DNA from: Geotalea daltonii FRC-32
GTDB lineage: Bacteria; Desulfobacterota; Desulfuromonadia; Geobacterales; Geobacteraceae
Assembly (NCBI RefSeq): GCF_000022265.1
Contig: NC_011979.1
Location: 4,080,001-4,112,000 of the forward strand
Direction: 5' to 3'
Length of the DNA: 32,000 nucleotides
A program made the position numbers and the translations under genes. Shown here one piece after another: positions 1,098-14,576 of the stretch; positions within the stretch are counted from its first letter, which is position 1, and each line of letters opens with the position of its first letter. The notes under the pieces are model-generated. The model made no database searches. It saw only the letters and a list, made by a program, of their open reading frames with translations, and was not told the DNA's origin.

Positions 1098-1436
1098 CTA
1101 TTTACCCCTAAATTCCAACACAACAGAATCGTTACTGGAATTTTTCAAGCGAATTCCTCTGTTATTTGCGACAGCTAGCCAGAATATAGCCATGAATGAT
1201 GAGAGAGGCATTAAGACGGCAAACCGGGACAACGTATAAAATGTACCCAACTTGTTACCTTGCTTTTTCCTTTCGCCTTCTTGCATGTGCATTAACAATT
1301 GCAATGATGAAAGGATGACCCTAGCTCGCCAACCGCATATTGAGACGTCAAAGTCCTTGTTTTCATTCAACAACCTTTTTGCCTTCGCACCAAAGCCACG
1401 TTCACTATACTCTAGCACTTCCGCCTGATTTCCCAT
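1098..1436 (-). CDS. Small membrane protein, candidate cognate immunity protein of the upstream Rhs
   Basis: A 112-aa ORF whose ATG (1434-1436) lies 1 nt after the Rhs stop codon (1438-1440). It has one clear hydrophobic helix, FAVLMPLSSFMAIFWLAVA. Its position matches the usual rhs-rhsI arrangement. I recognise no family. Confidence 0.5.
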   Translation of the reverse strand: MGNQAEVLEYSERGFGAKAKRLLNENKDFDVSICGWRARVILSSLQLLMHMQEGERKKQGNKLGTFYTLSRFAVLMPLSSFMAIFWLAVANNRGIRLKNSSNDSVVLEFRGK

Positions 1437-1437
1437 T

Positions 1438-4400
1438 TTAATTCCCCATCGTTACACAGCTAATCCATGCTGCCGTACACGCAGCAAGACAGACTCCCTT
1501 ACCCACAACACCTCCCGGACAGCGGGTGGTGCAAAAAGCCGTACACACTCTGAACATTGCACTACATCCGGTTCCAGGTGGCTTCGGTGGCTTTATCGGT
1601 GGTCTTGGCGGTGGTGGTATTGTTGGAATTGTGGGTGGTGGTTTTGGCAGTGGTCCTACAGCAGCTTCTCCAGTGGGATCGGTCCAATTCACAGGGTTGT
1701 TGTCGACGTAAGCATAGAGATTTATCCCCCCAGCGAACCCTATCGGATCTTTTTGAATATACCGCCCGATTGCCGGATTATAATCCCTAAAATAATTGTA
1801 GTTGTTCCCCGTCTCGCCGTCTGCATACTGGCCCGGAAATCTGAAATTGAGACTGGCCAAGCCAGTGATAGTTGCATTATCCCCAAATGGCCTTGCCTCT
1901 ACCTCCCACGCTTTAGCCCCGGTTCCGTCAGTCATGAAGGTAGGAGTGCCTAAATGATCGGTATGGATGTAGCTTATGCCGGTTGCGTCGATCTTGGCCA
2001 GCGGCTGGTTGCTCAGGTAGATGTAGTCAGCTTGGGTGCCGTCTGTAGCTGATTCAGCTATGAGTTGTCCTTGCTGATCAAAGATGAAGTAGGTTGTAAT
2101 GCCGTTGACTACCTTCTTGGCGCGTTGCCCATTGGCGTTGTAACTGTAGCTGCCTGTTTGCTCTGCAGTTGCCTGGATCAACCGCTGATTCTGGCTATAG
2201 GTGTATGTCTTGCTGTTTTCGTTCGTTGTGTTGCCGTTGGCGTCATAGCTGAAACTGGCGGGACTCGGGCCGGAAACGCTGGTCAGCTTGTTTGTACCCG
2301 GCTGATAACTATAACTGCTGGTACCGCTGCTGTCGGTCTGAGAGGTTCTGTTGCCAACCCCGTCATAGAGCCAACTTATCGTTCCCCATGGCCCGCTGCC
2401 GCTACCCAGCCGGTCGAGATTGTCGTAAGTGTAGGTCTTGTTCTTGGTATTGTCGAGATTATTGGTGATGGCGGTGATATTGCCATTAGCATCATAGCCG
2501 TAAGTGAGGTTTTGGACAGTTCCGGTAACGATGCTCGCTGGCCGATATTGGTTGTCGTAGGCTATGGTTCTTGCTAAACCGTTGCCGTAGGTGAGTGTTG
2601 TCAGGCCGCCGAAGGGTTTGTAAGTGATACTGCCGGCAAGGGTCGTGGTTATCCCGCCTAGTGTGCCGGTTACGCTGGTTACCCGGTCATTGGTGTAGTT
2701 GTAGGTTATAACCCTGCTGCTTGGATAGGTGATGGTTTTGGTATTGCCGTTCATGTCGTAGGTGTACTGGGTTGTGTAGGCAATACTATCAATTGTTCTT
2801 GTTTCCTTGGCTACCTGTCCTTTCTTCGTGTACTCATAGCTGGTTGTGCCGCTCTGGTCAGTGACAGCGCAGAGCCACCCCTTGCCGTTTGGACAGGTAT
2901 CGTAATTGTAAATGTTTGCCGAGTCTGTGGGAAAGGTTGTCGTGATGAGGCGGTTGGCGGCATCGTAGGTATAGGTTATGGTAATGCCTTTTGCGTCGGT
3001 CTTTGTCTTTAAATTGCCAGCAGGGTCATAGGTGTACGTGGTAGTGCCGGTATCGGGTGAGATGGCTTGATAGACCCTGCCCTTGTCGTCGTACTTGTAG
3101 ACAGTGCTATTGTTATTGCCGTCAGTGACGGTGGCCAGATTGTTGTTTGTGTTGTAGCTGAAGCCTGTGGTGATAGTACCAGGTTGGATCGTAGCGGTAA
3201 CCCGCCTCAAGGCGTCGTACTGGCTGGTGATGGTACTGCCTTTCGGGTCCTTGCTGCTGGTCACATTGCCGAGGCTGTCGTACCCGTACTCTGTGTAGGT
3301 TGCGTCAGGATTTTTGACCTGCTTGAGCCTGTTGAGGGCATCGTACTGGTAGCTGAGGGTCTTTTGCAAAACGCCTGTTGGGTCTTTGATCTCTTCTTTA
3401 AGCTTGTTCCCTTCACTGTCGTAGCTGTAGTTGAGGCTATTCCCAAGTCCGTCGCTAATTTTGCTGAGTTTGCCATTGGTGTCATAGAGGAAATCTAATC
3501 TATTCCCTTCCGGGAAAATCATGTGATCGATACGGTTTGCTACTCCACCGCATGAGCTGCAGCTGCCGGTGGTATAGCCGATCTGAGTAGCGGCGGTGTC
3601 TCCGGGTGCTTTGACGGTGAGTACGCGACCGACGGCATCATAGGTATAAAGGGTAGCATTGCCGTTGGAATCGGTGATAGTTCCTGGGTTGCCAAGGCCA
3701 TCATAGTTGTCATAGGTGGTGCCGACAACGGGCTCGGTTTTGGTAAGCATATTGCCGCTGGCATCGTAGGTGAAGGTGGTCACATCCTGAACATCTGTGC
3801 GAGGGCCGTCTATTTTTTTCAGCCGACTTTGGCTGTCATATTCGTAACTGGTGATGTAGCTGTACGGTGTACCATCGCCTAAAAGGCCTGTTTCGGTGGT
3901 ACTAAGGAGATTGCCTTTGGTGTCATAGTCGTTTGTGGTTACTCGATCCTGTGCAGGATTTACCACGCTTTTTACTTTTTCTGTCAGGACGTTACCGAAT
4001 ATTGGATGGTAGGTGTAGGTGGTGGTTTTTTCTATGGCGGTCCCTTGGGCATCGGTACGGGTAAGCAGGTTGCCAACTGCATCGTAGGTGTAATCAGCGG
4101 CGTATTTGAGCACAAGGTTAGGACTTGCCACCGTACCGGTGTTTTCCCACTTTTCTTCACGGGTGACCCACGTCTGACTGTTTCTGGTGTATCTCGTTTC
4201 ATTGCCGAAAGTATCGGTTACCTTGGCCACCTGCCCGCTCTGGTCAAAGGTGACAACGCGGTTCTGGGTGTTGAGAAGGGTCCCTGTCCCGTCTTTGATT
4301 GTAGTAGTAACTGTCGTTTTTTGCCGCGGAATTATGTAGCTGATGTCGATTGTGCCGGTACCGTGGGTTTGTTTGATAACCTTCCCCTGGGAATCATAGC

Positions 4401-5304
4401 TATTGACGTACATCCCTTCACCTTCGTCAATTGTGGTGAGAAGGTGCTTGTCGTTGGTATCGGTATAGCCATAGAGAGAATTAAACTGCGGAGATGATAC
4501 GGACTTCAAATTGCCGATACTGTCATGGTCGTAGGTGATAGTTCTCGAAAGGCTGTCGGTTATCTGGGTCAGCCGGCCTGTTTGTGCATCATAGGAAAAA
4601 TGAACCCACCTGCCGGTGGGCGTGCCGGTGGTGTCATGTTCTTCAACAGTACTTAACCTATAGTCGTACGCCACAACAAGCGGGTCCGTCTGTAGAACAT
4701 TCCAGGGTAACAGCCCCCAGAGTGGGGCTTTTGTGGCTGCTTCATAACTGAGAACAAGGGAGTTGCCTTTGATGTCTGTCATCGTGGTCAGACGACCATT
4801 AATATCGTATGTTTCCGCTGAGCCGTCTTTCTCAGTATAGGTATGGGTACCGTCGGGATTGGTGGTGAGGATTCCCGTTTCACCTACTGGCGTAGTAAAA
4901 CCTGTACCAGAAGGCATGAAATGTCTTTTCCAACCGGTTTCCTTCCGGATTATGACTGAGCCGTCGGCATAGGTATAAAGTCTCTTGTCGTAGTTATGCG
5001 CCCAACCATAACCCAAGGGGCTGTCATAGCCGGATACACTGGTGTATCGTCTTTTTATGTAGATGGGGAAGTTACCAAGAGTGAGATCGACCCTGCTTAA
5101 CGACTCCGTCCCTGAAACAAGGCTGATGGGTTTGCCAACATAGCCGGGATTCCCTTTTTCTATAATGGTTGCATCGGTCGCCTCGACCTTGTAATCCACA
5201 GCTGCACGAGAAACGCTTGGTAAAAAGCCCCCCCCTACACAGACTACGAGCAGCAGTCTCACCATGCCTATAAACCTTTTATTTTTAGCTACTCCACCCA
5301 GCAT
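1438..5304 (-). CDS. Rhs/YD-repeat protein with a Sec-type signal peptide and a short Pro-rich/Cys-rich C-terminal tip
   Basis: 1288 aa with a strong RBS (GAGGAGGGA) before the ATG at 5304. The N-terminus is MLGGVAKNKRFIGMVRLLLVVCVGGGFLPSVSRA/AV. A DUF6531-like entry segment follows (LVSGTESLSRVDLTLG...IKRRYTS...LGYGWAHNYD). Dozens of YD repeats follow (YTYDAVGN, YEYDSQSRL, YQYDALNRL and others). The Rhs core end reads YIHTDHLGTP...FPGQYADGETGNNYNYFRDYNPAIGRYIQKDPIGFAGGINLYAYVDNNPVNWTDPTGE and is followed by only 75 residues. Confidence 0.95.
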   Translation of the reverse strand: MLGGVAKNKRFIGMVRLLLVVCVGGGFLPSVSRAAVDYKVEATDATIIEKGNPGYVGKPISLVSGTESLSRVDLTLGNFPIYIKRRYTSVSGYDSPLGYGWAHNYDKRLYTYADGSVIIRKETGWKRHFMPSGTGFTTPVGETGILTTNPDGTHTYTEKDGSAETYDINGRLTTMTDIKGNSLVLSYEAATKAPLWGLLPWNVLQTDPLVVAYDYRLSTVEEHDTTGTPTGRWVHFSYDAQTGRLTQITDSLSRTITYDHDSIGNLKSVSSPQFNSLYGYTDTNDKHLLTTIDEGEGMYVNSYDSQGKVIKQTHGTGTIDISYIIPRQKTTVTTTIKDGTGTLLNTQNRVVTFDQSGQVAKVTDTFGNETRYTRNSQTWVTREEKWENTGTVASPNLVLKYAADYTYDAVGNLLTRTDAQGTAIEKTTTYTYHPIFGNVLTEKVKSVVNPAQDRVTTNDYDTKGNLLSTTETGLLGDGTPYSYITSYEYDSQSRLKKIDGPRTDVQDVTTFTYDASGNMLTKTEPVVGTTYDNYDGLGNPGTITDSNGNATLYTYDAVGRVLTVKAPGDTAATQIGYTTGSCSSCGGVANRIDHMIFPEGNRLDFLYDTNGKLSKISDGLGNSLNYSYDSEGNKLKEEIKDPTGVLQKTLSYQYDALNRLKQVKNPDATYTEYGYDSLGNVTSSKDPKGSTITSQYDALRRVTATIQPGTITTGFSYNTNNNLATVTDGNNNSTVYKYDDKGRVYQAISPDTGTTTYTYDPAGNLKTKTDAKGITITYTYDAANRLITTTFPTDSANIYNYDTCPNGKGWLCAVTDQSGTTSYEYTKKGQVAKETRTIDSIAYTTQYTYDMNGNTKTITYPSSRVITYNYTNDRVTSVTGTLGGITTTLAGSITYKPFGGLTTLTYGNGLARTIAYDNQYRPASIVTGTVQNLTYGYDANGNITAITNNLDNTKNKTYTYDNLDRLGSGSGPWGTISWLYDGVGNRTSQTDSSGTSSYSYQPGTNKLTSVSGPSPASFSYDANGNTTNENSKTYTYSQNQRLIQATAEQTGSYSYNANGQRAKKVVNGITTYFIFDQQGQLIAESATDGTQADYIYLSNQPLAKIDATGISYIHTDHLGTPTFMTDGTGAKAWEVEARPFGDNATITGLASLNFRFPGQYADGETGNNYNYFRDYNPAIGRYIQKDPIGFAGGINLYAYVDNNPVNWTDPTGEAAVGPLPKPPPTIPTIPPPPRPPIKPPKPPGTGCSAMFRVCTAFCTTRCPGGVVGKGVCLAACTAAWISCVTMGN

Positions 5305-5348
5305 GCTCCCTCCTCTTTCAAAAGCAACTACCCATCGTAGAATAGGTT

Positions 5349-5855
5349 TTAGTGGCCTGCAAAACCTGCTGACCGATCATCTGGTCCTGGTCCTGGTCCT
5401 GGTCCTGGTCCTGGTCCTGGCCCTGGCCCTGGTCCTGGCCCTGGCGGCGGTGGCGGCGGTGGTGGCCCACAAAGAGAGCAGGAATCTCCGTTGTTGCAAC
5501 AAGCATTGCCGCAACAGGGATCATTACTGCCACAGCAAGGGTCAGTACTGTTACAGCATTTGTCGGTCGGATCGGAACATAACCCTGTGTAAAGGATGCC
5601 ACAGAAGTCATTTCCGCCTTCAATCACAACCTGACCACAAGTCGTACATACTTCAGGGGGATAATAAAGCATCTCAAATCGCGTACAACCACCAGCTTTA
5701 TCGCAGAATGCCTCGGCAACAGAGATGGCTTCAGCTTTCGTATCACATTTTGATGGTCCACACAAACTGACATCCCAACATTGCGCGAAAGATAAATCAG
5801 GCACTAAGACCATGATCATGATTAAGTAACTGACTGTATGAATAAGAACTTTCAC
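5349..5855 (-). CDS. Secreted Cys-rich protein, paralog 1 (DPCCG-repeat module + poly-Pro + (GP)n linker + GFAGH tail)
   Basis: 168 aa with a GTG start at 5853-5855 and AAGGAT 9 nt upstream. The signal peptide is MKVLIHTVSYLIMIMVLVPDLSFA/QC. The mature part has 19 Cys and ends CSDPTDKCCNSTDPCCGSNDPCCGNACCNNGDSCSLCG-P8-(GP)n-DDRSAGFAGH. A paralog lies at 6383-6934. Confidence 0.8.
   Translation of the reverse strand: MKVLIHTVSYLIMIMVLVPDLSFAQCWDVSLCGPSKCDTKAEAISVAEAFCDKAGGCTRFEMLYYPPEVCTTCGQVVIEGGNDFCGILYTGLCSDPTDKCCNSTDPCCGSNDPCCGNACCNNGDSCSLCGPPPPPPPPGPGPGPGPGPGPGPGPGPGPDDRSAGFAGH
5381..5466. repeat. Coding microsatellite: ~10.5 copies of CTGGTC/CTGGCC (Gly-Pro codons on the minus strand) followed by a GGC/GGT run (poly-Pro)
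   Basis: Read directly from the sequence. Hexamers run 5381-5444 and the poly-Pro codon run is 5445-5466. The repeat also generates the artefactual low-complexity shadow ORFs at 5264-5770 and 5318-5623. Confidence 0.95.
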
Positions 5856-6104
5856 CTATTTGTTATCCTTTTGGCTGAATTTGAAATTCTCGCTTATCCA
5901 TAAACCTACTTTTTCAGGTTGCTCAAGACTTTCATTCATTTCAAGGCAGTATTTGAAATTGTAAGCTATCGCTGTAGAAAATGGTAAGACAGAACAAGCG
6001 AACAGTCCCCTTCTTACTTAAACTTTGCTTTAGTTACTACACCCACGACGTCCCCTCCTCCTCAAAAACACTTTCCCTTCGAGAGATCTAACTCCAGTAA
6101 CAAT

Positions 6105-6262
6105 TTAACGGCCTGCAAAATCAGGTAGATCTGATGGTGGCGTCGGTCCAGGTCCTGTTGATCCCGGTCCGGTCGGCCCAGGTCCTGTCGGTGGTGAAGG
6201 TGGCGGTGGCGGGCCACAAGAGAGCAGGAATCTCCATTGTTACAACAAGCATTGCCACAGGG
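6105..6262 (-). pseudogene. Frameshifted, 5'-truncated remnant of a third Cys-rich paralog
   Basis: The reverse strand reads ..RPCGNACCNNGDSCSL, then lacks one T relative to paralog 1 (ctctcttgtggcc versus ctctctttgtgggcc). With the frame restored it continues CGPPPPPSPPTGPGPTGPGSTGPGPTPPSDLPDFAGR* with the stop at 6105-6107. Similarity to paralog 1 stops abruptly upstream, at an in-frame TAA. Confidence 0.6.
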
Positions 6263-6382
6263 TCTTTATGTCTTCGGAATGGCATTAAATCTCCCTCGAC
6301 AGATCGTGCTTCACGCTGCATCCTGTCAAAAAGTGAGTTAGGCGTAATACGAAAGGAGGCAAAAGAACAGCTGTACTCCCTT

Positions 6383-6934
6383 TTATTTGCCAGTAAACCC
6401 CGAAAGATCTGAATCTGGTGCTCGATTTTGTCCGTTTGAGCCGTTTGAACCATTTGAGCCATTTGAGCCCGGTGGTGGCGGGCCACAAGTCACGCAGGAA
6501 TCATTATTGTTGCAACAATCATTGCCGCAACAGGGATCTTTACTGCCACAGCATTTGTCGTAAGGATTTGTGCAGCAAGGATTGGTTGGATCAGAGCAGT
6601 TATTGCAGTAAATCGCTATATTAACTTCAGCCTCTGGATAACATGTACATATAGTTTTTGCACCATCCCAACAAAATCTTTGGCTATATTTAACAACAAG
6701 AGTACGTCTTGAACCGTGGTAAATTTGATCATTATATGGAGCATCACCTATTATTGAACAGCTACAGAACGCATTACCACTGCTCCCGCAAAAGACAGTA
6801 TTAACATGATCAACAGCTTGATCACGAGTCCAACAATCATCAGCAACAGACAAGTTTTCAAAACATAGAACTAGAAGCAAGGTAAAAACAATGTAATATA
6901 TTTTATAAAGAAACCTGCTGATATAGCTCATCAA
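6383..6934 (-). CDS. Secreted Cys-rich protein, paralog 2 (DPCCG-repeat module + poly-Pro + (GSN)4 linker + GFTGK tail)
   Basis: 183 aa with TTG at 6934 or ATG at 6931 as start, and GGAGG at 6944-6948 (reverse strand). The signal peptide is ...FTLLLVLCFENLSVA/DDC. The mature part has 19 Cys and ends CSDPTNPCCTNPYDKCCGSKDPCCGNDCCNNNDSCVTCGPPPP(GSN)4GQNRAPDSDLSGFTGK. Confidence 0.8.
   Translation of the reverse strand: MMSYISRFLYKIYYIVFTLLLVLCFENLSVADDCWTRDQAVDHVNTVFCGSSGNAFCSCSIIGDAPYNDQIYHGSRRTLVVKYSQRFCWDGAKTICTCYPEAEVNIAIYCNNCSDPTNPCCTNPYDKCCGSKDPCCGNDCCNNNDSCVTCGPPPPGSNGSNGSNGSNGQNRAPDSDLSGFTGK
6432..6467. repeat. Coding 9-nt tandem repeat, four copies (CCGTTTGAG / CCGTTTGAA / CCATTTGAG / CCATTTGAG), encoding (GSN)4
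   Basis: Read directly from the sequence. Confidence 0.95.
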
Positions 6935-7012
6935 TATATACTACCTCCAGAAGTTTCTTCTGTGGTTCTATGCTTTCTCAAGCGATTTTGATTGTACCAT
7001 CTCTATGACAAC

Positions 7013-10000
7013 TTAATCGCCTACACCCAAATTTCCCCTAGTGACAGACGAAGCACCAGTAACTGGATCGGTCGCCTGGATCCAAACTGTATAGTCTCCT
7101 TCCTCGCTCACAGCAAATCCATTGCCGGTTGCATCGGTGGCTTTCCATTCAATCTCATACTCTCCTGCCGGCTGGAGGACATGATCGACTAGAGTTATTC
7201 CTAATGCCGTTGGTGGCAGCATCTTTACCGTAATATATGCCTGCTTGGACACGGCATATTTCAATCTGGTGAACTGTCCATATGAGAAGTGCAGTTGATA
7301 AGGGTCAGTGCTGACATAGGTGATCTTTGGGGTGTTGCCGGTTGCAATGATGAAGTTCTCGGCAAGTAGGGAAGAAACCGAGCAAGACGCTGTGCCCCCG
7401 CCATTCAGCATGACGTTTAAGGGATTCCTCCCATCCCAATTGGTGGTATAGGTACCCGGAGTGTAGGGTATTGCATCGACTATCTTGAAGTTTTGGCTAC
7501 CCCATAGGATATTGATCGTGACGCGTTCTGGTTGAGTAACGGAGTAGGTAATTGGAAGAGGGACGTTCCTGCGTGGATAGTAATCCCCCTGGCTGCATGT
7601 GATGCTCCCCTGACCACTCGGCGGTAGCGGAGAGTAGCCGTCGGTTCTTGTCCCATCAGAGGCATTCAGTATATACAGATACGCCTCATCCAAAACGGTT
7701 TTGCCGGTCGAATCGGCACCATTCCAGGTATATGAATAACTGCCAGCGGTCAGACAGCTTATTGAAGCTTGGTACACCGGAGTACCATTGGTACCGAGCT
7801 TTTCCGGTATGACACTCAAAGTCACTGTTGCCGGGCTGTTGATGGTGAATGCTATGGTCGTAGATTCCCCTAAGGCTGTGTTTAACGTGTTCTGGCTGGC
7901 TGATATCGAGGAGAGGATCAGGTTATTCACGGTCACGGGTATAGCTGTTACTGCTCTGTTGCCGGCCTTATCTGTGGCAGTTATCTTCATCTGATACTCG
8001 CCATTCTCTAACCTGATCTCGTTTTTCAAATCATTGGTGATCCACACTGCCAGCGTACCTGAGGTGACTGGCATACTTGACGACGCGAAAAGAGTCCATT
8101 GCCCCGTGCCGGATGCTGCCCCATATTCCACTGTGTAAGTATCGAAATTGGTATCCGCAGCAGTTCCGGTAATGGTCGCCGTGTTCTGCAATACCCCGCC
8201 TGAAACAGGCGCTGTAATGGAAACAGTCGGCAGCGTGGTATCAACTTTTATGGTGCCTGTTTTAGGTGAAGCTCCCAGAGACGACACTGGATCAAGAGCA
8301 TTGAATGCATAGGTATATGTGTCGTTAGGCACAACCACACCTGCAGAATTACGGCCGTCCCAGGCCTGGCTGAACGCAGAGCTACCTTGAGTTGTAAGGG
8401 TCCTGACAACAGTACCGGTTGAGTTGCTTAACGTTACGGACCAATTGACCGGGTAGCTGGCCGTCGCGCTAAGTAGCGACGAATCCTTGGTACCATCGCC
8501 GTTCGGTGAAAGGTAAGTCTCCGACGAATTTGCATTCTGAATCCAGAGGAGCCTGATGCGTGCCGCTTTTACTGTTGCATTCCCGGCATTATCGGTGACG
8601 GTGAGGCGCAGGGTGTATACGCCTCCAGTGGCATTGGTGAGGTCCCAGGCATACAAAAGGTTACCTTGCACTGGAACTGTTGCGCTCCTAAGGGCACTCC
8701 AGGAAATCGGGTTGTCTCCTGCCCCATACTCAAGGGTGTAGTTCTTGAAATCGGTAGGATCGGAGGCGGTGCCGGTAACATTGACGATGGTCCCGCCGGA
8801 AAAGATCTGATCATCAGTCGGCACATCGAGAATGGCCACAGGAAGTTGGCGGAATACCTTTACGGTTCCTTGTAAGGGAGAGGCCGCTTCCAAAGTCGCA
8901 GGATTTACCGCTTCTATCTTGTAGGTATAATTTCCATCCGCTACTTTCACAGACTGGCTGTCTTCGCCAAACCATCTCTGACTGATGGAAGTGCCGGAGC
9001 CGGTGAAAATTCTGACGACGTTATTTCCGCTGTCGGTGATAGTGATGGTCCAGTTGGCATTGGCGGAGATGAATGCCCCGAAGGTGAGATAATCCCCATC
9101 AGGATTGAACGCTGCTGGCGAAACCTTGACATTGCTGAAAGTCACTCCAGTCCCTGGAGTCTGGCCAATCCAAGGATTGTAGAGTACCTTGTCGCTGACG
9201 CTGTTGCCGGTGCCGGAAGGGTTGCTTGCATGGGTTGGTCCGGAGTCTGCCCCCCACCAATTATTTCTTGCGTCAACATCTACAGTCGTGGAACTGTTCC
9301 ATACACCTGCGGTGGAATTGCCGTAGATTCGTGAATTGACGATGTAAGGGTTTGAAGAAGTGGCATAAACACCCCACTTGTTGGCTGTAACCGTGCAACC
9401 AACCACCTGAGGGATGTTTTGTGCACCATATACATAGATGCCGCTTCCGGCACTGTTTCTGATTGTGGAATTACGGATCACTGGCGAAGAAGAATTAAAG
9501 ACAACGTTTGCGTTATTGTAGTACCCTCCTGAGCCTCCGTATTCGACGACAATGTTATTCAATATACTGCCGCTGGCAGAGTCACCGGAGAAGGTTATAC
9601 CCGACCAGCTTCCGGCAGTAGGCGTACCCTGACTGGAAGTAAAGGTGATCGCTGCCGTCCCTCCATCGGCAATGATGGACCCCCTGGAAGATCCCGAACC
9701 AATCTGCAGCGAGGTGTTTGTGTTAAATTTCACCACGACTCCCGGATCGATGGTCAGGGTAGCGGTGGTGACGGTGTCCTTAAAAACATAGACATTGCCG
9801 AGAACAATATATGGTGCTACCCACTTCTTCCAAAGAGTGTTTTGCGTCAGATACTCCCCGACAACCTCGATTTTGCCGGTTGCGGTAAGTCCGCTGAAGG
9901 TGTTTTCAGACAAAATCCGGTTTATCAAGGCAGCCCCTGCATGGGGTGGCGAATTATCCCCATTGCTGAAGGTATTGCCGGTGATGGTAGGGGTGATGCC

Positions 10001-13000
10001 GGTGGATGCGAGGTAGATGCCATTGGCAATGGTTGAATTCGTGACTGACAACATTGAAGTGGAACTGTTCAGGTAAAGGCCGTACTTGCCAGTGCTATTG
10101 ACGATGGAGACGCTGTAATTGGAAACTGTTGGAGAGCCGCTTCCGTAAATGCCATGACCGGTGGTGTTGGTATTGGTTAAGCTGCCACCGGTAATGATGG
10201 GCGATGAGGCAGAAAGATTGATACCGTAGCTGCCGTTGTTGGTAAGAGTGACATTCTCCAGCACCGGGTTACTATTAGAAAAGCTAGCATAGCCCGTCAT
10301 GTCTGTTATGGTGCAGTTTCTAAAAACAGGTGAAGCGGAGTTGATACTAAAGCCGGTGGTATATTGAATGTCGGCAATTTCGATTACTGATGTTGCATCC
10401 ACAGTGCCGTCATAATAGGTAAGGCCTGCCCATGTACCGCTGATGCCGCTTCGGGTGAAGGTGATACGATTTGATGGTGTTCCCTGGGCTATCAATGCCC
10501 CCTGGTTCGTGCCACTGCCGATCTGAAGTCCGGTGCTGGTCGCAAACTTGATGACGGTTCCCGGTGCAATGGTCAAGGTCGAGGCGGTTGTCGTGGTGTT
10601 GTAGACGGAAACAGTGCCGGAGACCACGTGATACGGAGCTGCCAGTGGGCTCCAGGTTACATTACGGTTCACCTGTTCGCCCACGATCTCGATTCTGCCG
10701 CCTGAAGTAAGGCCAGTTAGGGCGTTGTTGGCTATAAGCTGCCCGACTATGTTCGCCCCTACATGGATCGGAGAGCTATCCAGATTAGTGAAGGTATTGC
10801 CGGTAACGGTCGGGGTAATGCCGGTGGATGCGAGGTAGATGCCATTGGCAATGGTTGAGTTCGTGACTGACAACATTGAAGTGGAACTGTTCAGGTAAAG
10901 GCCGTACTTGCCAGTGCTATTGACCATAGAGACATTGTAATTCGTAATGACCGGTGCCCCGTTGCCATAAATACCATGGCCGGTGGTGTTGGTGTTGGTG
11001 TTGGTTAGGCTGCCACCGGTAATGATGGGCGATGAGGCAGAAAGATTGATACCGTAGCTGCCGTTGTTGGTAAGAGTGACATTCTCCAGCACCGGGTTAC
11101 TATTAGAAAAGCTAGCATAGCCCGTCATGTCTGTTATGGTGCAGTTTCTAAAAACAGGTGAAGCGGAGTTGATACTAAAGCCGGTGGTATATTGGATGTC
11201 GGCATTCTCGATTACTGATGTTGCATCCACAGCCCCGTCATAATAGGTAAGGCCTGCCCATGTACCGCTAGTGCCGCTCCGGGTAAATGTAATCCTTTCC
11301 GTCGTCGTCCCTTTTGCGATTAGTGCCCCTTGATTGGCACCACTTCCTATGTATAGCCCGCTACCGCCTGCAAATAATTTAATTGTTGTTCCTGGCTCGA
11401 TAGTCAGAGTAGCAGGCGAAATGGTATCTTTGTATACGTAAATGGCTCCTGAAATCACATAAGGCGCAATCTGTTTCCGCCACAGTGTGTCCCTGTTTAT
11501 CTGCTCGCCTACCACCTCGATCTTGCCGGCAAAGGTCTGGCCGGTCAGGGTGTTGTTGGCGATGATCTGGGCAATGATATTGGCTCCCGCATGAAGGGGG
11601 GAGTTATCTAAATTAGTGAAGGTGTTGCCGGTGATAGTCGGAGTAATGCCGGTGGAGCCAAAGTATATGCCATTGGCGATGATAGAGTTGGTAACACTGA
11701 GGGCTGAGGTCGTACTGCCGAGGTAAAGACCATACTTGCCGGCACTGTTGACGATGGAGACGCTGTAATTGGAAATTGTTGGGGAGCCGCTGCCATAAAT
11801 GCCATGGCCGGTGGTGCTGGTGTTGGTTAAGCTGCCGCCGGTAATGATGGGCGAGGAATTCGAAAGGTAGAGGCCATAGCTGCCATTGTTGGTGATGGCA
11901 ACATTCTCCATGATCGGATTGGCGGAAGAAAGATTAATCCCATATCCCGTTACGTCTGTTATGGTGGAGGTTTTGATTGTAGGAGAAGCAGATGTGATAC
12001 TCAACCCGCTATTGTACTGGACATCGGCGTTTTCGATGACGGTTATGGCATCAACAGTGCCGTCTTGGAAGGCGATGGTTCCCCAAGTCCCGGTTGTGCT
12101 GCTTCGGGTGAAGGTAATTCTCTCTGTCGTCGTCCCTCTGGCGATGAGTGCTCCCTGGCTTGTACCGTTGCCAATCTGGAGCCCGGTATTCGGGGCAAAT
12201 TTGATCATGGTGCCTGGTGCAATGGTTAAGGTAGAGGGGATGGCCGTCGTATTGTAAACCGAGACCGTGCCGGAGACTACCCAGTAAGGAGCAACCAACT
12301 TGTTCCACGTTGTGTCCTGGGAAACCTGCTCGCCCATGACCTCGACCCTGCCCGTGGAAGCAAGGCCGGTCAGGGTGTTGTTGGCGATGATCTGGGCAAT
12401 GATATTGGCTCCCGCATGCAGGGGCGAATTATCCAGATTGGTGAAGGTATTGCCGGTAACGGTCGGGGTAATGCCGGTGGATGCGAGGTAGATGCCATTG
12501 GCAATGGTTGAGTTCGTGACTGACAACATTGAAGTGGAACTGTTCAGGTAAAGGCCGTACTTGCCAGTGCTATTGACCATAGAGACATTGTAATTCGTAA
12601 TGACCGGTGCCCCGTTGCCATAAATACCCTGACCGGTGGTGTTGGTATTGGTTAAGCTGCCACCGGTAATGATGGGCGATGAGGAGTTCAGGTAGATGCC
12701 GTAGCTGCCGTTGTTGGTAAGAGTGACATTCTCCAGCACCGGGTTACTATTAGAAAAGCTAGCATAGCCCGTCATGTCTGTTATGGTGCAGTTTCTAAAA
12801 ACAGGTGAAGCGGAGTTGATACTAAAGCCGGTGGTATATTGGATGTCGGCATTTTCGATTACTGATGTTGCATCCACAGTGCCGTCATAATAGGTAAGGC
12901 CTGCCCATGTACCGGTTGTGCCGCTTCGGGTGAAGATAATTCTCTCTGTCGTCGTCCCTCTGGCGATGAGTGCTCCCTGACTGGCACCACTTCCTATGTA

Positions 13001-14107
13001 TAGCCCGCTGCCGCCTGCAAATTTAATAGCCGTACCAGGCTCGATGGTCAGGGTAGCAGGGGAAATGGTATCTTTGTATACGTAAATGGCTCCTGAAATC
13101 ACATAAGGGGCAATCTGTTTCCACCACAGTGTGTCCCTGTTTATCTGCTCGCCTACCACCTCGATCTTGCCGGCAAAGGTCTGGCCGGTCAGGGTGTTGT
13201 TGGCGATGATCTGGGCAATGATGTTGGCTCCCGCATGAAGGGGGGAGTTATCTAAATTAGTGAAGGTGTTGCCGGTGATAGTCGGAGTAATGCCGGTGGA
13301 GCCAAAGTATATGCCATTGGCGATGATAGAGTTGGTAACACTGAGGGCTGAGGTCGTACTGCCGAGGTAAAGACCATACTTGCCGGCACTGTTGACGATG
13401 GAGACGCTGTAATTGGAAATTGTTGGAGAGCCGCTGCCATAAATGCCATGGCCGGTGGTGCTGGTGTTGGTTAAGCTGCCGCCGGTAATGATGGGCGAGG
13501 AATTCGAAAGGTAGAGGCCATAGCTGCCATTGTTGGTGATGGCAACATTCTCCATGATCGGATTGGCGGAAGAAAGATTAATCCCATATCCCGTTACGTC
13601 TGTTATGGTGGAGGTTTTGATTGTGGGAGAAGCAGATGTGATACTCAACCCGCTATTGTACTGGACATCGGCGTTTTCGATGACGGTTATGGCATCGACA
13701 GTGCCGTCTTGGAAGGCGATGGTTCCCCACGTCCCGGTTGTGCCGCTTCGGGTGAAGGTAATTCTCTCTGTCGTCGTCCCTCTGGCGATGAGTGCTCCCT
13801 GACTGGCACCACTTCCTATCTGCAATACGGTATTGGAAGCAAATTTAACCACAACGCCAGGTTCTATGGTGAGGGTAGCTGCTGTGGTACTGGTCCCATA
13901 CACCTGAACAGTTGAAGTGACATTATAAGGGCTACCGGCCAGAGTCCAGGTTGTATCCGTGGAAATGACACCTCCCACCGTAGTATCTGCAAAAGACGGC
14001 AGAGCATGACTTATCAGAATGAACAAAAAGAAAAGGAGTGTTTTGAGTCCCTTCACCACACCCTCCTGTAAGGTTATTTGATTTAGAACTATTTTGACGG
14101 CATACAC
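7013..14107 (-). CDS. Giant secreted/surface protein: about six tandem parallel-beta-helix modules followed by FlgD-Ig-like and other Ig-like domains
   Basis: 2364-aa ORF. The likely true start is the GTG at 14054-14056, which lies 5 nt after AGGAGG (14062-14067, reverse strand). That start gives the signal peptide M-KGLKTLLFFLFILISHALPSFA/DTT. The modules begin with W..APY...G.V.V......LTIEPG..IKFA....L.IGSG.SQGALIA.GTT.ERI.FT. They continue with short N/S/T/G-rich beta-helix rungs (NNGSYGLYL, SPIITGG). The C-terminal third (about 7013-9165) has repeated FlgD-Ig-type signatures such as SPAAFNPDGDYLTF...WTITITDSGNNVVRIF...WFGEDSQSVKVADGNYTYKIEA and LSPNGDGTKDSS...WDGRNSAGVVVPNDTYTY. Confidence 0.95.
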   Translation of the reverse strand: MYAVKIVLNQITLQEGVVKGLKTLLFFLFILISHALPSFADTTVGGVISTDTTWTLAGSPYNVTSTVQVYGTSTTAATLTIEPGVVVKFASNTVLQIGSGASQGALIARGTTTERITFTRSGTTGTWGTIAFQDGTVDAITVIENADVQYNSGLSITSASPTIKTSTITDVTGYGINLSSANPIMENVAITNNGSYGLYLSNSSPIITGGSLTNTSTTGHGIYGSGSPTISNYSVSIVNSAGKYGLYLGSTTSALSVTNSIIANGIYFGSTGITPTITGNTFTNLDNSPLHAGANIIAQIIANNTLTGQTFAGKIEVVGEQINRDTLWWKQIAPYVISGAIYVYKDTISPATLTIEPGTAIKFAGGSGLYIGSGASQGALIARGTTTERIIFTRSGTTGTWAGLTYYDGTVDATSVIENADIQYTTGFSINSASPVFRNCTITDMTGYASFSNSNPVLENVTLTNNGSYGIYLNSSSPIITGGSLTNTNTTGQGIYGNGAPVITNYNVSMVNSTGKYGLYLNSSTSMLSVTNSTIANGIYLASTGITPTVTGNTFTNLDNSPLHAGANIIAQIIANNTLTGLASTGRVEVMGEQVSQDTTWNKLVAPYWVVSGTVSVYNTTAIPSTLTIAPGTMIKFAPNTGLQIGNGTSQGALIARGTTTERITFTRSSTTGTWGTIAFQDGTVDAITVIENADVQYNSGLSITSASPTIKTSTITDVTGYGINLSSANPIMENVAITNNGSYGLYLSNSSPIITGGSLTNTSTTGHGIYGSGSPTISNYSVSIVNSAGKYGLYLGSTTSALSVTNSIIANGIYFGSTGITPTITGNTFTNLDNSPLHAGANIIAQIIANNTLTGQTFAGKIEVVGEQINRDTLWRKQIAPYVISGAIYVYKDTISPATLTIEPGTTIKLFAGGSGLYIGSGANQGALIAKGTTTERITFTRSGTSGTWAGLTYYDGAVDATSVIENADIQYTTGFSINSASPVFRNCTITDMTGYASFSNSNPVLENVTLTNNGSYGINLSASSPIITGGSLTNTNTNTTGHGIYGNGAPVITNYNVSMVNSTGKYGLYLNSSTSMLSVTNSTIANGIYLASTGITPTVTGNTFTNLDSSPIHVGANIVGQLIANNALTGLTSGGRIEIVGEQVNRNVTWSPLAAPYHVVSGTVSVYNTTTTASTLTIAPGTVIKFATSTGLQIGSGTNQGALIAQGTPSNRITFTRSGISGTWAGLTYYDGTVDATSVIEIADIQYTTGFSINSASPVFRNCTITDMTGYASFSNSNPVLENVTLTNNGSYGINLSASSPIITGGSLTNTNTTGHGIYGSGSPTVSNYSVSIVNSTGKYGLYLNSSTSMLSVTNSTIANGIYLASTGITPTITGNTFSNGDNSPPHAGAALINRILSENTFSGLTATGKIEVVGEYLTQNTLWKKWVAPYIVLGNVYVFKDTVTTATLTIDPGVVVKFNTNTSLQIGSGSSRGSIIADGGTAAITFTSSQGTPTAGSWSGITFSGDSASGSILNNIVVEYGGSGGYYNNANVVFNSSSPVIRNSTIRNSAGSGIYVYGAQNIPQVVGCTVTANKWGVYATSSNPYIVNSRIYGNSTAGVWNSSTTVDVDARNNWWGADSGPTHASNPSGTGNSVSDKVLYNPWIGQTPGTGVTFSNVKVSPAAFNPDGDYLTFGAFISANANWTITITDSGNNVVRIFTGSGTSISQRWFGEDSQSVKVADGNYTYKIEAVNPATLEAASPLQGTVKVFRQLPVAILDVPTDDQIFSGGTIVNVTGTASDPTDFKNYTLEYGAGDNPISWSALRSATVPVQGNLLYAWDLTNATGGVYTLRLTVTDNAGNATVKAARIRLLWIQNANSSETYLSPNGDGTKDSSLLSATASYPVNWSVTLSNSTGTVVRTLTTQGSSAFSQAWDGRNSAGVVVPNDTYTYAFNALDPVSSLGASPKTGTIKVDTTLPTVSITAPVSGGVLQNTATITGTAADTNFDTYTVEYGAASGTGQWTLFASSSMPVTSGTLAVWITNDLKNEIRLENGEYQMKITATDKAGNRAVTAIPVTVNNLILSSISASQNTLNTALGESTTIAFTINSPATVTLSVIPEKLGTNGTPVYQASISCLTAGSYSYTWNGADSTGKTVLDEAYLYILNASDGTRTDGYSPLPPSGQGSITCSQGDYYPRRNVPLPITYSVTQPERVTINILWGSQNFKIVDAIPYTPGTYTTNWDGRNPLNVMLNGGGTASCSVSSLLAENFIIATGNTPKITYVSTDPYQLHFSYGQFTRLKYAVSKQAYITVKMLPPTALGITLVDHVLQPAGEYEIEWKATDATGNGFAVSEEGDYTVWIQATDPVTGASSVTRGNLGVGD
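9830..13950 (-). repeat. Intragenic tandem array of ~822-nt (~274-aa) beta-helix modules, with a ~1644/1653-nt super-period at near identity
   Basis: The module-initial Trp codons fall at about 13948, 13126, 12304, 11482, 10651 and 9832. Shadow ORFs 13252-13449 and 11608-11805 differ by one residue. Shadow ORFs 13530-13802 and 11886-12257 are also nearly identical. A third B-type copy lies one module (822 nt) below the second (10001 versus 10823). Confidence 0.9.
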
Positions 14108-14136: not shown

Positions 14137-14181
14137 ACTGTAAAATTTCTTTACAGTTGTAAAAAATTTTTACAGTTGTAA
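14137..14181. promoter_or_regulatory. Operator-like palindrome cluster upstream of the giant gene
   Basis: ACTGTAAA (14137-14144) and TTTACAGT (14150-14157) form an 8-bp inverted repeat. The 5+2+5 palindrome TTACAGTTGTAA occurs twice, at 14151-14162 and 14170-14181, with a 19-bp period. All lie in an AT-rich region 30-75 nt upstream of the ATG at 14107. Function is not established. Confidence 0.35.
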
Positions 14182-14412
14182 GTATTCCTTTTTTGATTTA
14201 AATAGTTAGCTATAGCAAAAAACAAGGACTTGATTCAAAAATTTGACTTCATTGGAAAGAAATAATCTTTAAGTGTGATTTATCAAACATAATAGCTGGC
14301 ATAGGAAAGGAATTTTAGTTAATTGTCTCAGATGGTGCTTTTTTAGAAGCCTTAGCTTTGTGCCGCACGGTTGCCCGTGCTTTACAATGATTTTTTACCA
14401 AATGCGACAATG

Positions 14413-14456
14413 TAAATAAAAAAGTGGGTGCGAGATATTCTATCCCACACCCACTT
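14413..14456 (-). terminator. Rho-independent terminator, probably of glmS
   Basis: The stem is AAGTGGGTG (14422-14430) pairing with CACCCACTT (14448-14456). On the minus strand it is followed by TTTTTTATTT. It lies ~120 nt after the glmS stop codon. Confidence 0.7.
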
Positions 14457-14576
14457 CACGACTTTCAATATACCAAATGATTTTTGAGTAAAGCAGTGGC
14501 CGTAAGCCACCACACCTTCAGTTCCCTGCTTTATTTTTCACGATCAAACAAACCATCATCAAAGCAGAATGCGCCT

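Follow-up and report, generated by a model that had tools for sequence, protein, structure and literature searches.

How does an Rhs protein with a Sec signal peptide, encoded beside no recognisable delivery machinery, reach its target? The question is raised by a cassette of five co-directional minus-strand genes of Geotalea (Geobacter) daltonii FRC-32, located in a window of 32,000 nucleotides, the whole stretch of DNA that was analysed. Few toxin containers are as widespread as Rhs/YD shells and, to our knowledge, their delivery is understood for the T6SS, T7SS, and Tc versions only. The answer favoured here, with a probability of roughly 60 %, is that the locus represents a conserved subtype, apparently not described before, of Sec-dependent polymorphic Rhs toxin-immunity cassette, in which the partner proteins take part in display or delivery of the Rhs.

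The genes encode, in this order, a giant β-helix/FlgD-Ig protein, the Cys-rich proteins A and B, the signal peptide-bearing Rhs, and a small protein with one transmembrane (TM) helix, and are separated by gaps of 78, 527, 44, and 1 nt. These genes and gaps had been listed in a preliminary description of the locus, and the ORFs were confirmed on the minus strand. The paralog remnant reported there for the 527-nt gap was also recovered: it is a frameshifted C-terminal part of a third Cys-rich copy (6105..6265, -), which matches the 3′ portion of gene 5349-5855 at 78 % DNA identity (E 6e-23). The gene set of the proposed unit stands, as its order recurs elsewhere, but its limits do not. The giant gene, of which the maximal ORF spans 7013..14107 (-) and encodes 2364 aa, likely starts at the GTG at 14056 directly after AGGAGGG instead of at 14107, giving a protein of 2347 aa. 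At the other end, the cassette reaches beyond 1098, as the GenBank protein numbering puts an N-terminally truncated Rhs paralogue, ACM22012, three genes past the small ORF, outside the window. A further paralogue is ACM19395. Upstream of the giant gene, a promoter-like site (TTTACA-18-AATCAT; 14387..14416, -) lies just past the glmS terminator hairpin (14421-14457), the 17-bp stem of which is the stronger feature; the site was found by consensus scan only, in a region with no more such sites than its shuffles, and is weak evidence. The arrangement suggests that the cassette is its own transcription unit, which would be read from the promoter-like site after the glmS terminator.

All four larger products carry the Sec-type signal peptides claimed for them earlier, in which one or two basic residues come before a hydrophobic core of 12 residues (mean Kyte-Doolittle 2.5-2.9), and an A-x-A-like site follows. 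Cleavage is predicted at SFA/DT, SVA/DD, SFA/QC, and SRA/AV; the leaders were read from the sequence and not taken from a dedicated predictor. No Pfam or NCBIfam match was obtained for either Cys-rich protein, the 76-aa Rhs tip, or the small ORF.

The giant secreted protein is built of a signal peptide, five right-handed β-helix modules of ~275 aa, a sixth, divergent module, and an Ig-like/FlgD-Ig array. It matches Beta_helix in 10 stretches (E 2e-60), NosD, and FlgD_ig (E 6e-21) of Pfam and contains 0.3 % Cys, and its gene harbours five copies of an internal repeat of 819-828 nt, alternate copies of which are up to 96 % identical. The N-terminal Beta_helix/NosD modules (9188..13975, -) are variable: in homologues this region is swapped for fn3, CARDB, RCC1, or Big_3_3 domains, or the number of modules differs, and the proteins measure 2697 aa in one locus (L001) and 350-860 aa elsewhere. 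The conserved C-terminal module (7016..8530, -; aa 1860-2364) comprises about five Ig-like domains, with FlgD_ig twice within the last 330 aa. Its AlphaFold2 model, based on a 27-sequence alignment, is all-β (pLDDT 90.7, pTM 0.74), and a Foldseek search with this module found generic MG/Ig arrays only (TM ~0.2). The view of the giant as a surface fibre or receptor-binding component has to be adjusted on this point, as the conserved part, judged from the homologues, is the Ig-like tail and not the β-helix fibre. The protein was also considered as a T9SS cargo and rejected as such: the CHU_C/TIGR04131 matches are internal (aa 1863-1937) and both overlap FlgD_ig, with no sorting domain at the extreme C-terminus. 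Pfam CHU_C scores 35.8, above its cutoff of 27, and NCBIfam TIGR04131 scores 16.3 bits, below its cutoff of 35.

The Cys-rich secreted proteins A (6383..6934, -; 183 aa; family HMM E 2e-32) and B (5349..5855, -; 168 aa; E 4e-29) are paralogues, and Cys makes up 10.9 % and 11.3 % of the two. In protein A, the signal peptide is followed by an N-domain that varies, by the conserved motif CSDPT(D/N)xCC..CCG..DPCCGNxCC, and by a tail of low complexity; the N-domain of B carries the signature C..C-D-T-x-x-E-A. An AlphaFold2 model of B of moderate quality (pLDDT 68) shows one helix and three strands followed by a Cys-rich coil, and has no structural neighbour at E<0.6. The family is rare, with 28 representatives matched among 1.84 billion (1.84e9). 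A Geobacteraceae MAG has three intact Cys-rich copies at the same position, and a Cys-rich gene is found between giant and Rhs in 20 of 80 metagenomic loci (fused to Rhs in two of these) as well as at related genome and contig loci. In P0069 (E 3e-15), P0017, P0061, P0056, and P0088, the module is fused to the Rhs, with the signal peptide in front of it and the plug behind it. P0065 is also such a fusion, judged by reading its sequence, and in P0062, P0089, P0097, and P0108, MopE-like Cys repeats are fused to the Rhs. Because it is fused to the Rhs N-terminus in several relatives, the Cys-rich protein may be regarded as a split N-terminal prefix of the Rhs. Of the roles suggested in the preliminary description, that of adaptor gains support from these fusions, while those of plug or co-toxin found none. 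The adaptor role would not be universal, since more distant cassettes have, in place of the small Cys-rich gene, one for a TPR protein, those for TolB-like, FlgD-Ig, and TPR proteins, or nothing. A disulfide link between Rhs and the Cys-rich proteins is not supported because the N-terminal segment of the window Rhs has no Cys.

The gene neighbourhood check proposed earlier was run on 80 metagenomic loci of the Rhs subfamily by tblastn with the C-terminal module of the giant, scoring loci with at least 2.5 kb of upstream sequence. A homologue of the giant tail lies directly upstream of Rhs in 23/23 loci with an Rhs at least 45 % identical and in 17/20 below 45 % (40/43 in total). The reverse test, from giant-tail homologue to a nearby Rhs, held in 3/3 cases, one of which ended with the contig before any Rhs was reached; giant-tail homologues with varied N-termini share contigs with Rhs homologues. 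The order giant with FlgD-Ig tail, Cys-rich protein, signal-peptide Rhs, and small ORF recurs across other genomes and metagenomes, with no T6SS, TpsB, T2SS, or Tc family found repeatedly nearby. The genes flanking the cassette differ from locus to locus, indicating different chromosomal contexts, and in the Geobacter/Nitrospirota branch, one to five small Cys-rich secreted proteins usually also precede Rhs. The window cassette has both marks of the subtype: a FlgD-Ig tail gene upstream on the same strand and the Cys-rich module, which may be separate or fused. Conserved adjacency of this kind proves that the genes are inherited together and probably function together; it does not prove the particular roles put forward here. 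The arrangement had been thought impossible to assign to a described system. This no longer applies to the Sec-exported Rhs, a known class (PMC3482391), but its linkage to FlgD-Ig-tailed and Cys-rich partner families looks new, and the two accessory families seem to be undescribed.

That linkage has to be weighed against the possibility that the Rhs is an ordinary member of the Sec/T2SS class and that the giant and Cys-rich proteins are co-inherited, perhaps co-regulated, surface adhesins or matrix proteins not directly involved in its loading, display, or delivery. Sec-type RHS toxins without signature neighbour genes have indeed been described (Zhang et al. 2012; PMC3482391), the domains of the giant are generic adhesin-type folds, and in Planctomycetota and Myxococcota, unrelated secreted proteins of large size use DPCCG repeats as linkers too, without an Rhs in the vicinity. 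We consider this explanation unlikely: near-complete linkage down to 30 % Rhs identity and across differing flanks would hardly be expected unless a function were shared, the fusions tie the Cys-rich module to the Rhs polypeptide, and in the giant only the tail is conserved while the adhesin-like part is swapped.

The Rhs itself (1438..5304, -; 1288 aa; 100 % identical to ACM22016/WP_012648742 of G. daltonii FRC-32) comprises a signal peptide (aa 1-34; MLGGVAKNKRFIGMVRLLLVVCVGGGFLPSVSRA, followed by AV), a plug-type DUF6531 (57-127), which is the sole other N-terminal Pfam domain, a YD-repeat shell, RHS, and Rhs_assc_core (1139-1212). RHS_repeat (PF05593) matches 11 stretches (E 6e-75) and TIGR01643 matches with E 8e-44; the Rhs-associated core TIGR03696 (86 bits vs a cutoff of 32.5) lies directly before the variable tip. 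This core is the autoproteolysis region of Rhs/YD-repeat polymorphic toxins. Among solved structures, its best relatives are T6SS Rhs shells, Tse5, and bacterial teneurin-like proteins (Rhs shells in the PDB, E 2e-61). With an N-terminal signal peptide and no other trafficking domain, the protein belongs to the Sec/T2SS class, and a signal peptide was found on 87 of 104 full-length Rhs homologues. By its domains, it is recognisable as a YD-repeat polymorphic toxin of the established Sec-exported type.

Its polymorphic tip, the candidate toxin (1441..1668, -; Rhs aa 1213-1288, 76 aa), consists of a Pro-rich linker and a 45-aa hydrophobic, cationic peptide (+3, no acidic residue) with 7 Cys. It has no homologue among 120 Rhs relatives or 111 loci; at 45 aa the peptide is unusually small and could be degenerate. 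According to precomputed Pfam lists of 120 listed Rhs homologues, tips of relatives contain domains that act on the envelope, namely phospholipase A2 (PLA2) domains (PF00068, PF06951, PF09056), peptidoglycan hydrolases (PF07486, PF08291), or a Tlde1-like domain (PF10908). Tips are about ten-fold enriched in Cys, with a median of 5 in the last 100 aa vs 0.44 per 100 aa in the shell. The small ORF Geob_3676 (ACM22015; 1098..1436, -; 112 aa), a candidate immunity protein, begins 1 nt past the Rhs stop and has one predicted TM helix (aa 72-90). It matches by position the variable, mostly signal peptide- or TM-bearing ORFs that follow homologous Rhs genes, where 27 of 35 distinct first downstream ORFs carry a signal peptide- or TM-like hydrophobic segment. 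Together, the Cys-enriched tips and these putative immunity proteins point to action of the toxins on the envelope. Orphan Rhs C-terminal modules occur downstream in relatives, and ACM22012 is the case in point in G. daltonii.

These features also bear on a second and still less probable explanation, namely that the complex is no weapon and serves cell-surface adhesion, kin recognition, or metal handling, with Cys-rich modules binding metal or redox partners in a metal-reducing bacterium. Teneurin-type YD shells function as adhesion receptors, the bacterial teneurin-like proteins are over-represented in social bacteria, some Cys-rich modules match PF11617, a 'putative metal-binding motif', and genes for multihaem cytochromes are found repeatedly around the 23 related loci, although genomes of this kind are rich in cytochromes anyway. 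Hypervariable tips with recognised toxin domains, a variable small ORF right behind each Rhs, and orphan modules are, however, hallmarks of polymorphic toxin-immunity systems, which argues against this reading.

As claimed in the preliminary description, genes for Hcp/VgrG, TpsB/CdiB, or Tc components, and also for T2SS, are absent from the window, where family searches came up empty, and no T6SS, TpsB, T2SS, or Tc family recurs among 136 flank ORFs of the 23 related loci. The five proteins and the window contain no TpsA secretion domain either, and none recurs in these flanks. The window Rhs lacks a PAAR or VgrG-type N-terminus, as had been stated, and neither occurs in the Pfam lists of the 120 listed homologues. 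Very little speaks for the Rhs being a cargo effector of a T6SS whose cluster lies elsewhere, next to an unrelated giant and Cys-rich proteins: T6SS Rhs shells are its closest solved structures, DUF6531 is found in T6SS Rhs proteins as well, and some Geobacter species have a T6SS, but the protein begins with a Sec leader of the cleavable type and lacks PAAR, prePAAR, and VgrG-binding domains, PAAR is found in 0/120 listed homologues, and Cys-rich tips with signal peptide- or TM-bearing immunity candidates fit passage through the producer's periplasm. Equally far-fetched is a Tc-like (ABC) complex with the giant as TcA translocator and the Rhs as TcB-TcC cocoon, for although a YD-shell cocoon adjoins a separate, very large protein and TcB/TcC structures weakly match the Rhs core (E 1e-10 to 1e-8), the five proteins contain no TcA, SpvB, or TcdB mid-domain family and no β-propeller, the giant is β-helical and Ig-like instead of having the α-helical TcA fold, and the Rhs is one 1288-aa chain with a Sec leader.

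If the cassette is a Sec-dependent toxin-immunity system, its parts could work together as follows. Sec would export all four larger proteins to the periplasm, where disulfides would form. The Cys-rich protein would serve, in trans, as an N-terminal prefix to the Rhs, at the position held by a trafficking or anchoring domain in other Rhs toxins, and would link the loaded shell to the giant's Ig-like tail. The complex would be displayed on the cell or outside it by the variable N-terminal modules of the giant, which would also bind targets; the outer membrane would be crossed by machinery encoded elsewhere (T2SS, vesicles, or lysis). The cationic, hydrophobic 45-aa tip with its 7 Cys would leave the shell and damage the target envelope, probably the membrane, while the one-TM small protein would protect the producer cell. 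A broader and more doubtful idea, offered tentatively, is that the FlgD-Ig-tailed carrier and the Cys-rich prefix are the parts of an apparatus dedicated to displaying and delivering Sec-exported YD-shell toxins in diderms (Desulfobacterota, Nitrospirota, and relatives), distinct from the T6SS, T5SS, Tc, and T7SS routes. The constant tail would hold the shell via the Cys-rich adaptor and the swappable modules (β-helix, fn3, CARDB, RCC1) would set target specificity.

If true, this would explain by what route Sec-dependent Rhs toxins and teneurin-like toxins get to their targets. The cassette supplies two tightly linked candidate delivery components, a constant Ig-like tail on a variable giant and a rare Cys-rich module split from or fused to Rhs, in a cultured organism in which delivery is open to experiment. 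It defines two uncurated protein families, which may reveal the route of Sec-exported Rhs toxins, and the family-wide shift to Cys-rich, disulfide-rich tips suggests that these probably act on the cell envelope.

Among known systems, Tc (ABC) toxins and CdiA/CdiB share with the cassette a cocoon or polymorphic tip and a very large fibre-like or carrier protein; unlike these, it has no TcA/TcB or TpsA/TpsB families, and the β-helix of the giant is of the Beta_helix/NosD type, not TpsA/FHA. T6SS Rhs effectors (Tse5, 8cp6; Photorhabdus Rhs1, 7q97; RhsP, 8h8a) have the shell size, DUF6531-type plug region, and C-terminal core in common with the window Rhs. Tse5 is reported to show that the cargo of an Rhs can be a small, hydrophobic toxin that forms pores (PMC10684867). 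The window Rhs differs in having a Sec leader instead of a PAAR/VgrG-binding domain, no T6SS genes nearby, and Cys-rich tips in its family. WapA-type Rhs toxins of Gram-positive bacteria likewise combine a Sec signal peptide, DUF6531, YD repeats, a polymorphic tip, and an immunity gene (a candidate one here). WapA crosses one membrane only and carries its own wall-binding region, whereas the window system has a diderm host and separate partner proteins.

Bacterial teneurin-like proteins (TLPs), which occur in Thermodesulfobacteriota, are YD-shell toxins without visible delivery machinery (Raoelijaona et al., Nat Commun 2026; PMC13018210). They share with the cassette a Sec-exported YD shell around a small polymorphic toxin, variable adhesion-type domains, an immunity gene in the same operon (a candidate one here), and, in some, membrane-active tips. 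TLPs are single chains of ~2200 aa with FN-plug, NHL, and YD shell, mostly a TIP domain, and fused adhesion domains (PMC13018210), whereas the window Rhs has 1288 aa, which leaves no room for an NHL domain (no NHL or TEN_NHL match in Rhs), and the adhesion-like modules are on a separate protein. The TLP structures 9pt5 and 9ifo match only Rhs aa 609-1213, and the Rhs was not classed as a TLP, having only the YD shell in common with them. Closest is the T2SS/Sec-dependent class of Zhang, de Souza, Anantharaman, Iyer, and Aravind (2012; PMC3482391), defined by a signal peptide, repeats including RHS, and no signature neighbourhood genes, in a paper that mentions no FlgD, cysteine-rich, or Geobacter feature. 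Signal peptide, RHS/YD repeats, core and hypervariable C-terminal toxin, adjacent variable immunity gene (a candidate one here), and downstream orphan modules are all shared with that class; what sets the window subfamily apart is a pair of conserved partners, namely a protein with a FlgD-Ig tail and the Cys-rich prefix protein.

There is good support for reading the DNA between positions 1098 and 14107 as a polymorphic toxin-immunity cassette of the Rhs type that depends on Sec and includes two conserved accessory families. Its five minus-strand ORFs encode a giant protein (7013-14107), two Cys-rich proteins (6383-6934 and 5349-5855), the Rhs protein (1438-5304) and a small protein (1098-1436). 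They lie exactly where the preliminary description placed them, with the same gaps of 78, 527, 44 and 1 nt. Upstream of the cassette are glmS and glmU, and the other genes in the window are of a housekeeping nature (a radical-SAM enzyme, a multihaem cytochrome, modABC and a sigma-54 two-component pair). As a 17-bp hairpin terminator 3' of glmS and, between it and the giant gene, a promoter-like site precede the giant gene, the cassette is probably a separate transcription unit. The start of the giant gene is most likely the GTG at 14056, which is preceded by AGGAGGG. The AT-rich leader region upstream of it contains the direct repeat ACAACTGTAAA in two copies about 20 nt apart (approximately 14140-14182, minus strand), which may be a regulator binding site.

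The cassette directly follows the glmS 3' end, a classical attTn7-type insertion hotspot. No Tns genes are present in the window, beyond which the far end of the cassette lies, nor were Rfam or tRNA features found in it; positions 1-1097 carry only short, poor ORFs. GC content drops at the cassette edges to 0.45 (14-15 kb) and 0.44 (6-7 kb), versus 0.55-0.58 in the neighbouring segments. IS200-type (Y1_Tnp) transposase genes make up 5 of 136 ORFs in the flanks of loci L032-L111 of the comparison, and their recurrence fits a location of the cassette in mobile or variable regions. Two further Rhs paralogues are encoded in the G. daltonii genome. ACM22012 (1071 aa, 68 % identical, with a different tip and without leader or plug) is located, by GenBank protein numbering, three genes past the small ORF (ACM22015), to the left of window position 1, and has the appearance of an Rhs module, orphaned or displaced, that belongs to the cassette locus. 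Orphan Rhs modules also occur downstream of the main Rhs gene in a metagenome-assembled genome (MAG). The other paralogue, ACM19395, is full-length (1348 aa), has a leader and is encoded elsewhere in the genome.

The genes of the cassette co-occur across genomes. Of 80 metagenomic loci, 23 combine an Rhs protein of at least 45 % identity with at least 2.5 kb of sequence upstream, and all 23 encode, upstream on the same strand, a homologue of the C-terminal Ig-like/FlgD-Ig module of the giant protein (the tail, aa 1860-2364) that covers its ~330-500 C-terminal residues. The same holds for 17 of the 20 loci with an Rhs protein of 29-43 % identity. The gap between the tail gene and the Rhs gene is usually 520-1000 nt, which leaves room for one small ORF. 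The reverse search began with three divergent proteins that bear the tail. Downstream of each is a small ORF, an Rhs gene or both; the Rhs gene itself is visible in two, and the third contig stops right after the Cys-rich gene. Close relatives retain the cassette order despite different flanks (MshEN/Mla at one locus, cytochromes and ABC genes at another), and the order is also found in Geobacter and Nitrospirota genomes. In distant cassettes (Rhs 29-36 % identical; L072, L075, L085, L086 and L094, together with L081, L090, L093, L098, L103 and L107), the Cys-rich gene has been replaced, and a protein with a FlgD-Ig tail still lies ahead. Some of these loci carry a TolB-like PD40 propeller, a FlgD-Ig protein of ~370 aa and a TPR protein of ~160 aa, a set that no curated family names; others have the ~160-aa TPR protein alone, or nothing, in place of the Cys-rich gene.

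The giant protein consists of a Sec-type leader, five Beta_helix/NosD modules of ~275 aa, a sixth, divergent beta-helix and ~700 aa of Ig-like sequence including FlgD_ig. The five modules are encoded by tandem repeats of ~825 nt (9726-13884) that are 60-96 % identical to one another at the DNA level. The identity of up to 96 % between alternate copies (11376-11675 versus 13020-13319) suggests that duplication or gene conversion took place recently, and module number varies among homologues (2364 versus 2697 aa). Tail homologues, encoded on contigs shared with Rhs homologues, differ widely at the N-terminus (Beta_helix, fn3, CARDB, RCC1 or Big_3_3). Since these N-termini vary, the Ig-like tail is the conserved partner of the Rhs protein and the beta-helix "fibre" the swappable part. 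AlphaFold2 confidently modelled the tail as approximately five beta-sandwich domains (pLDDT 90.7, pTM 0.74), and Foldseek matched the model to generic Ig/MG arrays only. Matches to alpha2-macroglobulin and complement (TM ~0.2, rmsd >30 Å) were read as generic Ig/MG-domain similarity, and homology to thioester proteins was rejected. A CHU_C/T9SS sorting domain was discarded as well, the matches being internal and overlapping FlgD_ig and NCBIfam TIGR04131 scoring under its cutoff. The tail had no plasmid match.

The two Cys-rich proteins are paralogues with ~11 % Cys, each composed of a leader, a variable N-domain with the signature C..C-[DT]-T-x-x-E-A, an invariant block (CS[DN]PT[DN]xCC..CCG..[DN]PCCG.xCC) and a low-complexity tail. 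A third, frameshifted copy remains at 6105-6265 inside the 527-nt gap; in a Geobacteraceae MAG three intact copies occupy the corresponding position. Neither protein matches a Pfam or NCBIfam family. A search with the full alignment was dominated by low-complexity words and gave two matches. When trimmed sequences were instead run exhaustively against 1.84 billion representatives with HMMER, only 28 family members emerged, all of 119-241 aa. With the family HMM, members were found between the giant and Rhs genes, in up to five copies, in 20 of the 80 metagenomic loci, which had been collected with the Rhs N-terminal region as sole query and for which ORF calls are crude, and in related genome and contig loci. 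One database protein, P0173, opens with the C-terminus of a homologue of the giant's tail and continues without a frame break into the leader and the body of a member of the Cys-rich family; it reflects either an artefact of gene calling or a junction that is read through.

In several Rhs homologues the Cys-rich module is fused to the Rhs protein itself, immediately behind the leader and ahead of the DUF6531 plug, as detected with the HMM in P0069 (E 3e-15), P0017, P0061, P0056 and P0088 and by reading the sequence at the N-terminus of P0065. MopE-like Cys repeats take the same position in other relatives. In other Rhs toxins, this position is occupied by PAAR, LXG, wall-binding or adhesion domains. 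The gene fusions indicate that the small Cys-rich proteins would work together with the Rhs N-terminus. A disulfide bond between the two at the window locus was considered and rejected, as the mature N-terminal segment of the Rhs protein has no Cys. Long DPCCG(N/S)x tandem arrays are also present in large proteins secreted by Planctomycetota and Myxococcota (loci L005, L014, L017, L020, L022, L027, L029, L030 and others) with no Rhs or giant homologue nearby. The array seems to represent a Cys-rich repeat that is not yet curated and is probably a disulfide-rich linker; its use as a linker in unrelated secreted proteins suggests that the Cys-rich module has the role of a stalk or spacer rich in disulfides and not that of an enzyme. 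The repeat alone was dropped as a diagnostic of the cassette because a scan of a genome collection for the CC motif mostly matched these unrelated arrays. The AlphaFold model of the Cys-rich domain is moderate (pLDDT 68) and a structure search with it gave no match below E 0.6, so that no fold was assigned.

The Rhs protein, identical (100 %) to ACM22016/WP_012648742 of Geotalea (Geobacter) daltonii FRC-32, has a leader, DUF6531, a YD-repeat shell and an Rhs-associated core that ends at aa 1212. Its tip of 76 aa combines a Pro-rich linker with a cationic, hydrophobic peptide of 45 aa containing 7 Cys, and resembles a small membrane-active peptide. Tse5 (PMC10684867) provides a precedent, an Rhs protein with a pore-forming toxin. 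The putative immunity protein encoded by the small ORF (Geob_3676, "Transmembrane protein" in UniProt) has one hydrophobic helix and is predicted to be a membrane protein. Neither tip nor small ORF has a Pfam or NCBIfam match or a homologue among the Rhs relatives and loci compared.

Judged by eye and hydropathy, as were the leaders of the window proteins, 87 of 104 full-length Rhs homologues have a hydrophobic leader, and most of those without one look like truncated gene calls. No PAAR family appears in the Pfam lists of the 120 homologues. Tips are hypervariable, and those recognisable with Pfam are mostly envelope-acting (three PLA2 families, peptidoglycan hydrolases and Tlde1-like domains). 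They are also rich in Cys: the 104 full-length homologues have a median of 5 in the last 100 aa, against a shell value of 0.44 per 100 aa, and in 73 at least one of the last 12 residues is a Cys although their tips are unrelated. Many terminate in C-x-C-K-K, CGKCE or CPCD-type motifs, and the C-terminal Cys may be a shared disulfide or processing feature. An SP- or TM-like segment is present in 27 of 35 distinct first-downstream ORFs. Leaders, tips and downstream ORFs together fit a family of toxins that would cross the producer's own periplasm, reach their fold in an oxidising compartment and target membrane or wall.

The view that known delivery machinery is lacking was borne out for the window. 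When 136 flanking ORFs (110-700 aa, up to 7 kb away) from 23 loci were compared with Pfam, the only families present in at least two were PD40, TPR, DPPIV_N/DUF5050 (overlapping the PD40 matches), IS200 transposase, multihaem cytochromes and FlgD_ig. No T6SS, T5SS, T2SS or Tc family recurred, one hidden occurrence being possible; a consistent embedding of homologous cassettes in such loci can be excluded for these 23.

In the mechanism that we propose, the Cys-rich protein would act in trans as the N-terminal prefix of the Rhs protein and the Ig-like tail of the giant protein as its docking partner. The variable modules of the giant protein would display the complex and bind targets, the outer membrane would be crossed by some further route, and the tip would attack the target envelope. 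For the picture as a whole, cassette identity and mechanism together, we estimate a probability of roughly 60 %. The stronger claim that the partners form a dedicated delivery apparatus is tentative and, in our estimate, rather doubtful.

The arrangement had initially been considered not assignable to a described system. This does not hold for the Rhs protein, since Rhs toxins with a signal peptide form a standard class without signature neighbour genes (Zhang et al. 2012, PMC3482391). It may hold for the linkage to the partners: Zhang et al. mention neither FlgD, cysteine-rich partners nor Geobacter, and literature searches for the cassette, its locus tags, Rhs with FlgD and Geobacter with RHS, of incomplete coverage and thus compatible with an earlier description, returned none. 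A parallel is formed by the teneurin-like proteins reported in 2026 (PMC13018210), YD shells that are exported by Sec, carry fused adhesion domains, have immunity genes and lack obvious delivery machinery. These are defined by an FN-plug, NHL and a YD shell in a single chain of ~2200 aa, a combination that the Rhs protein of the window does not have. On one reading, the cassette would be a relative of these surface-displayed shells that has been split, with the adhesion-type modules on a separate, tightly linked protein.
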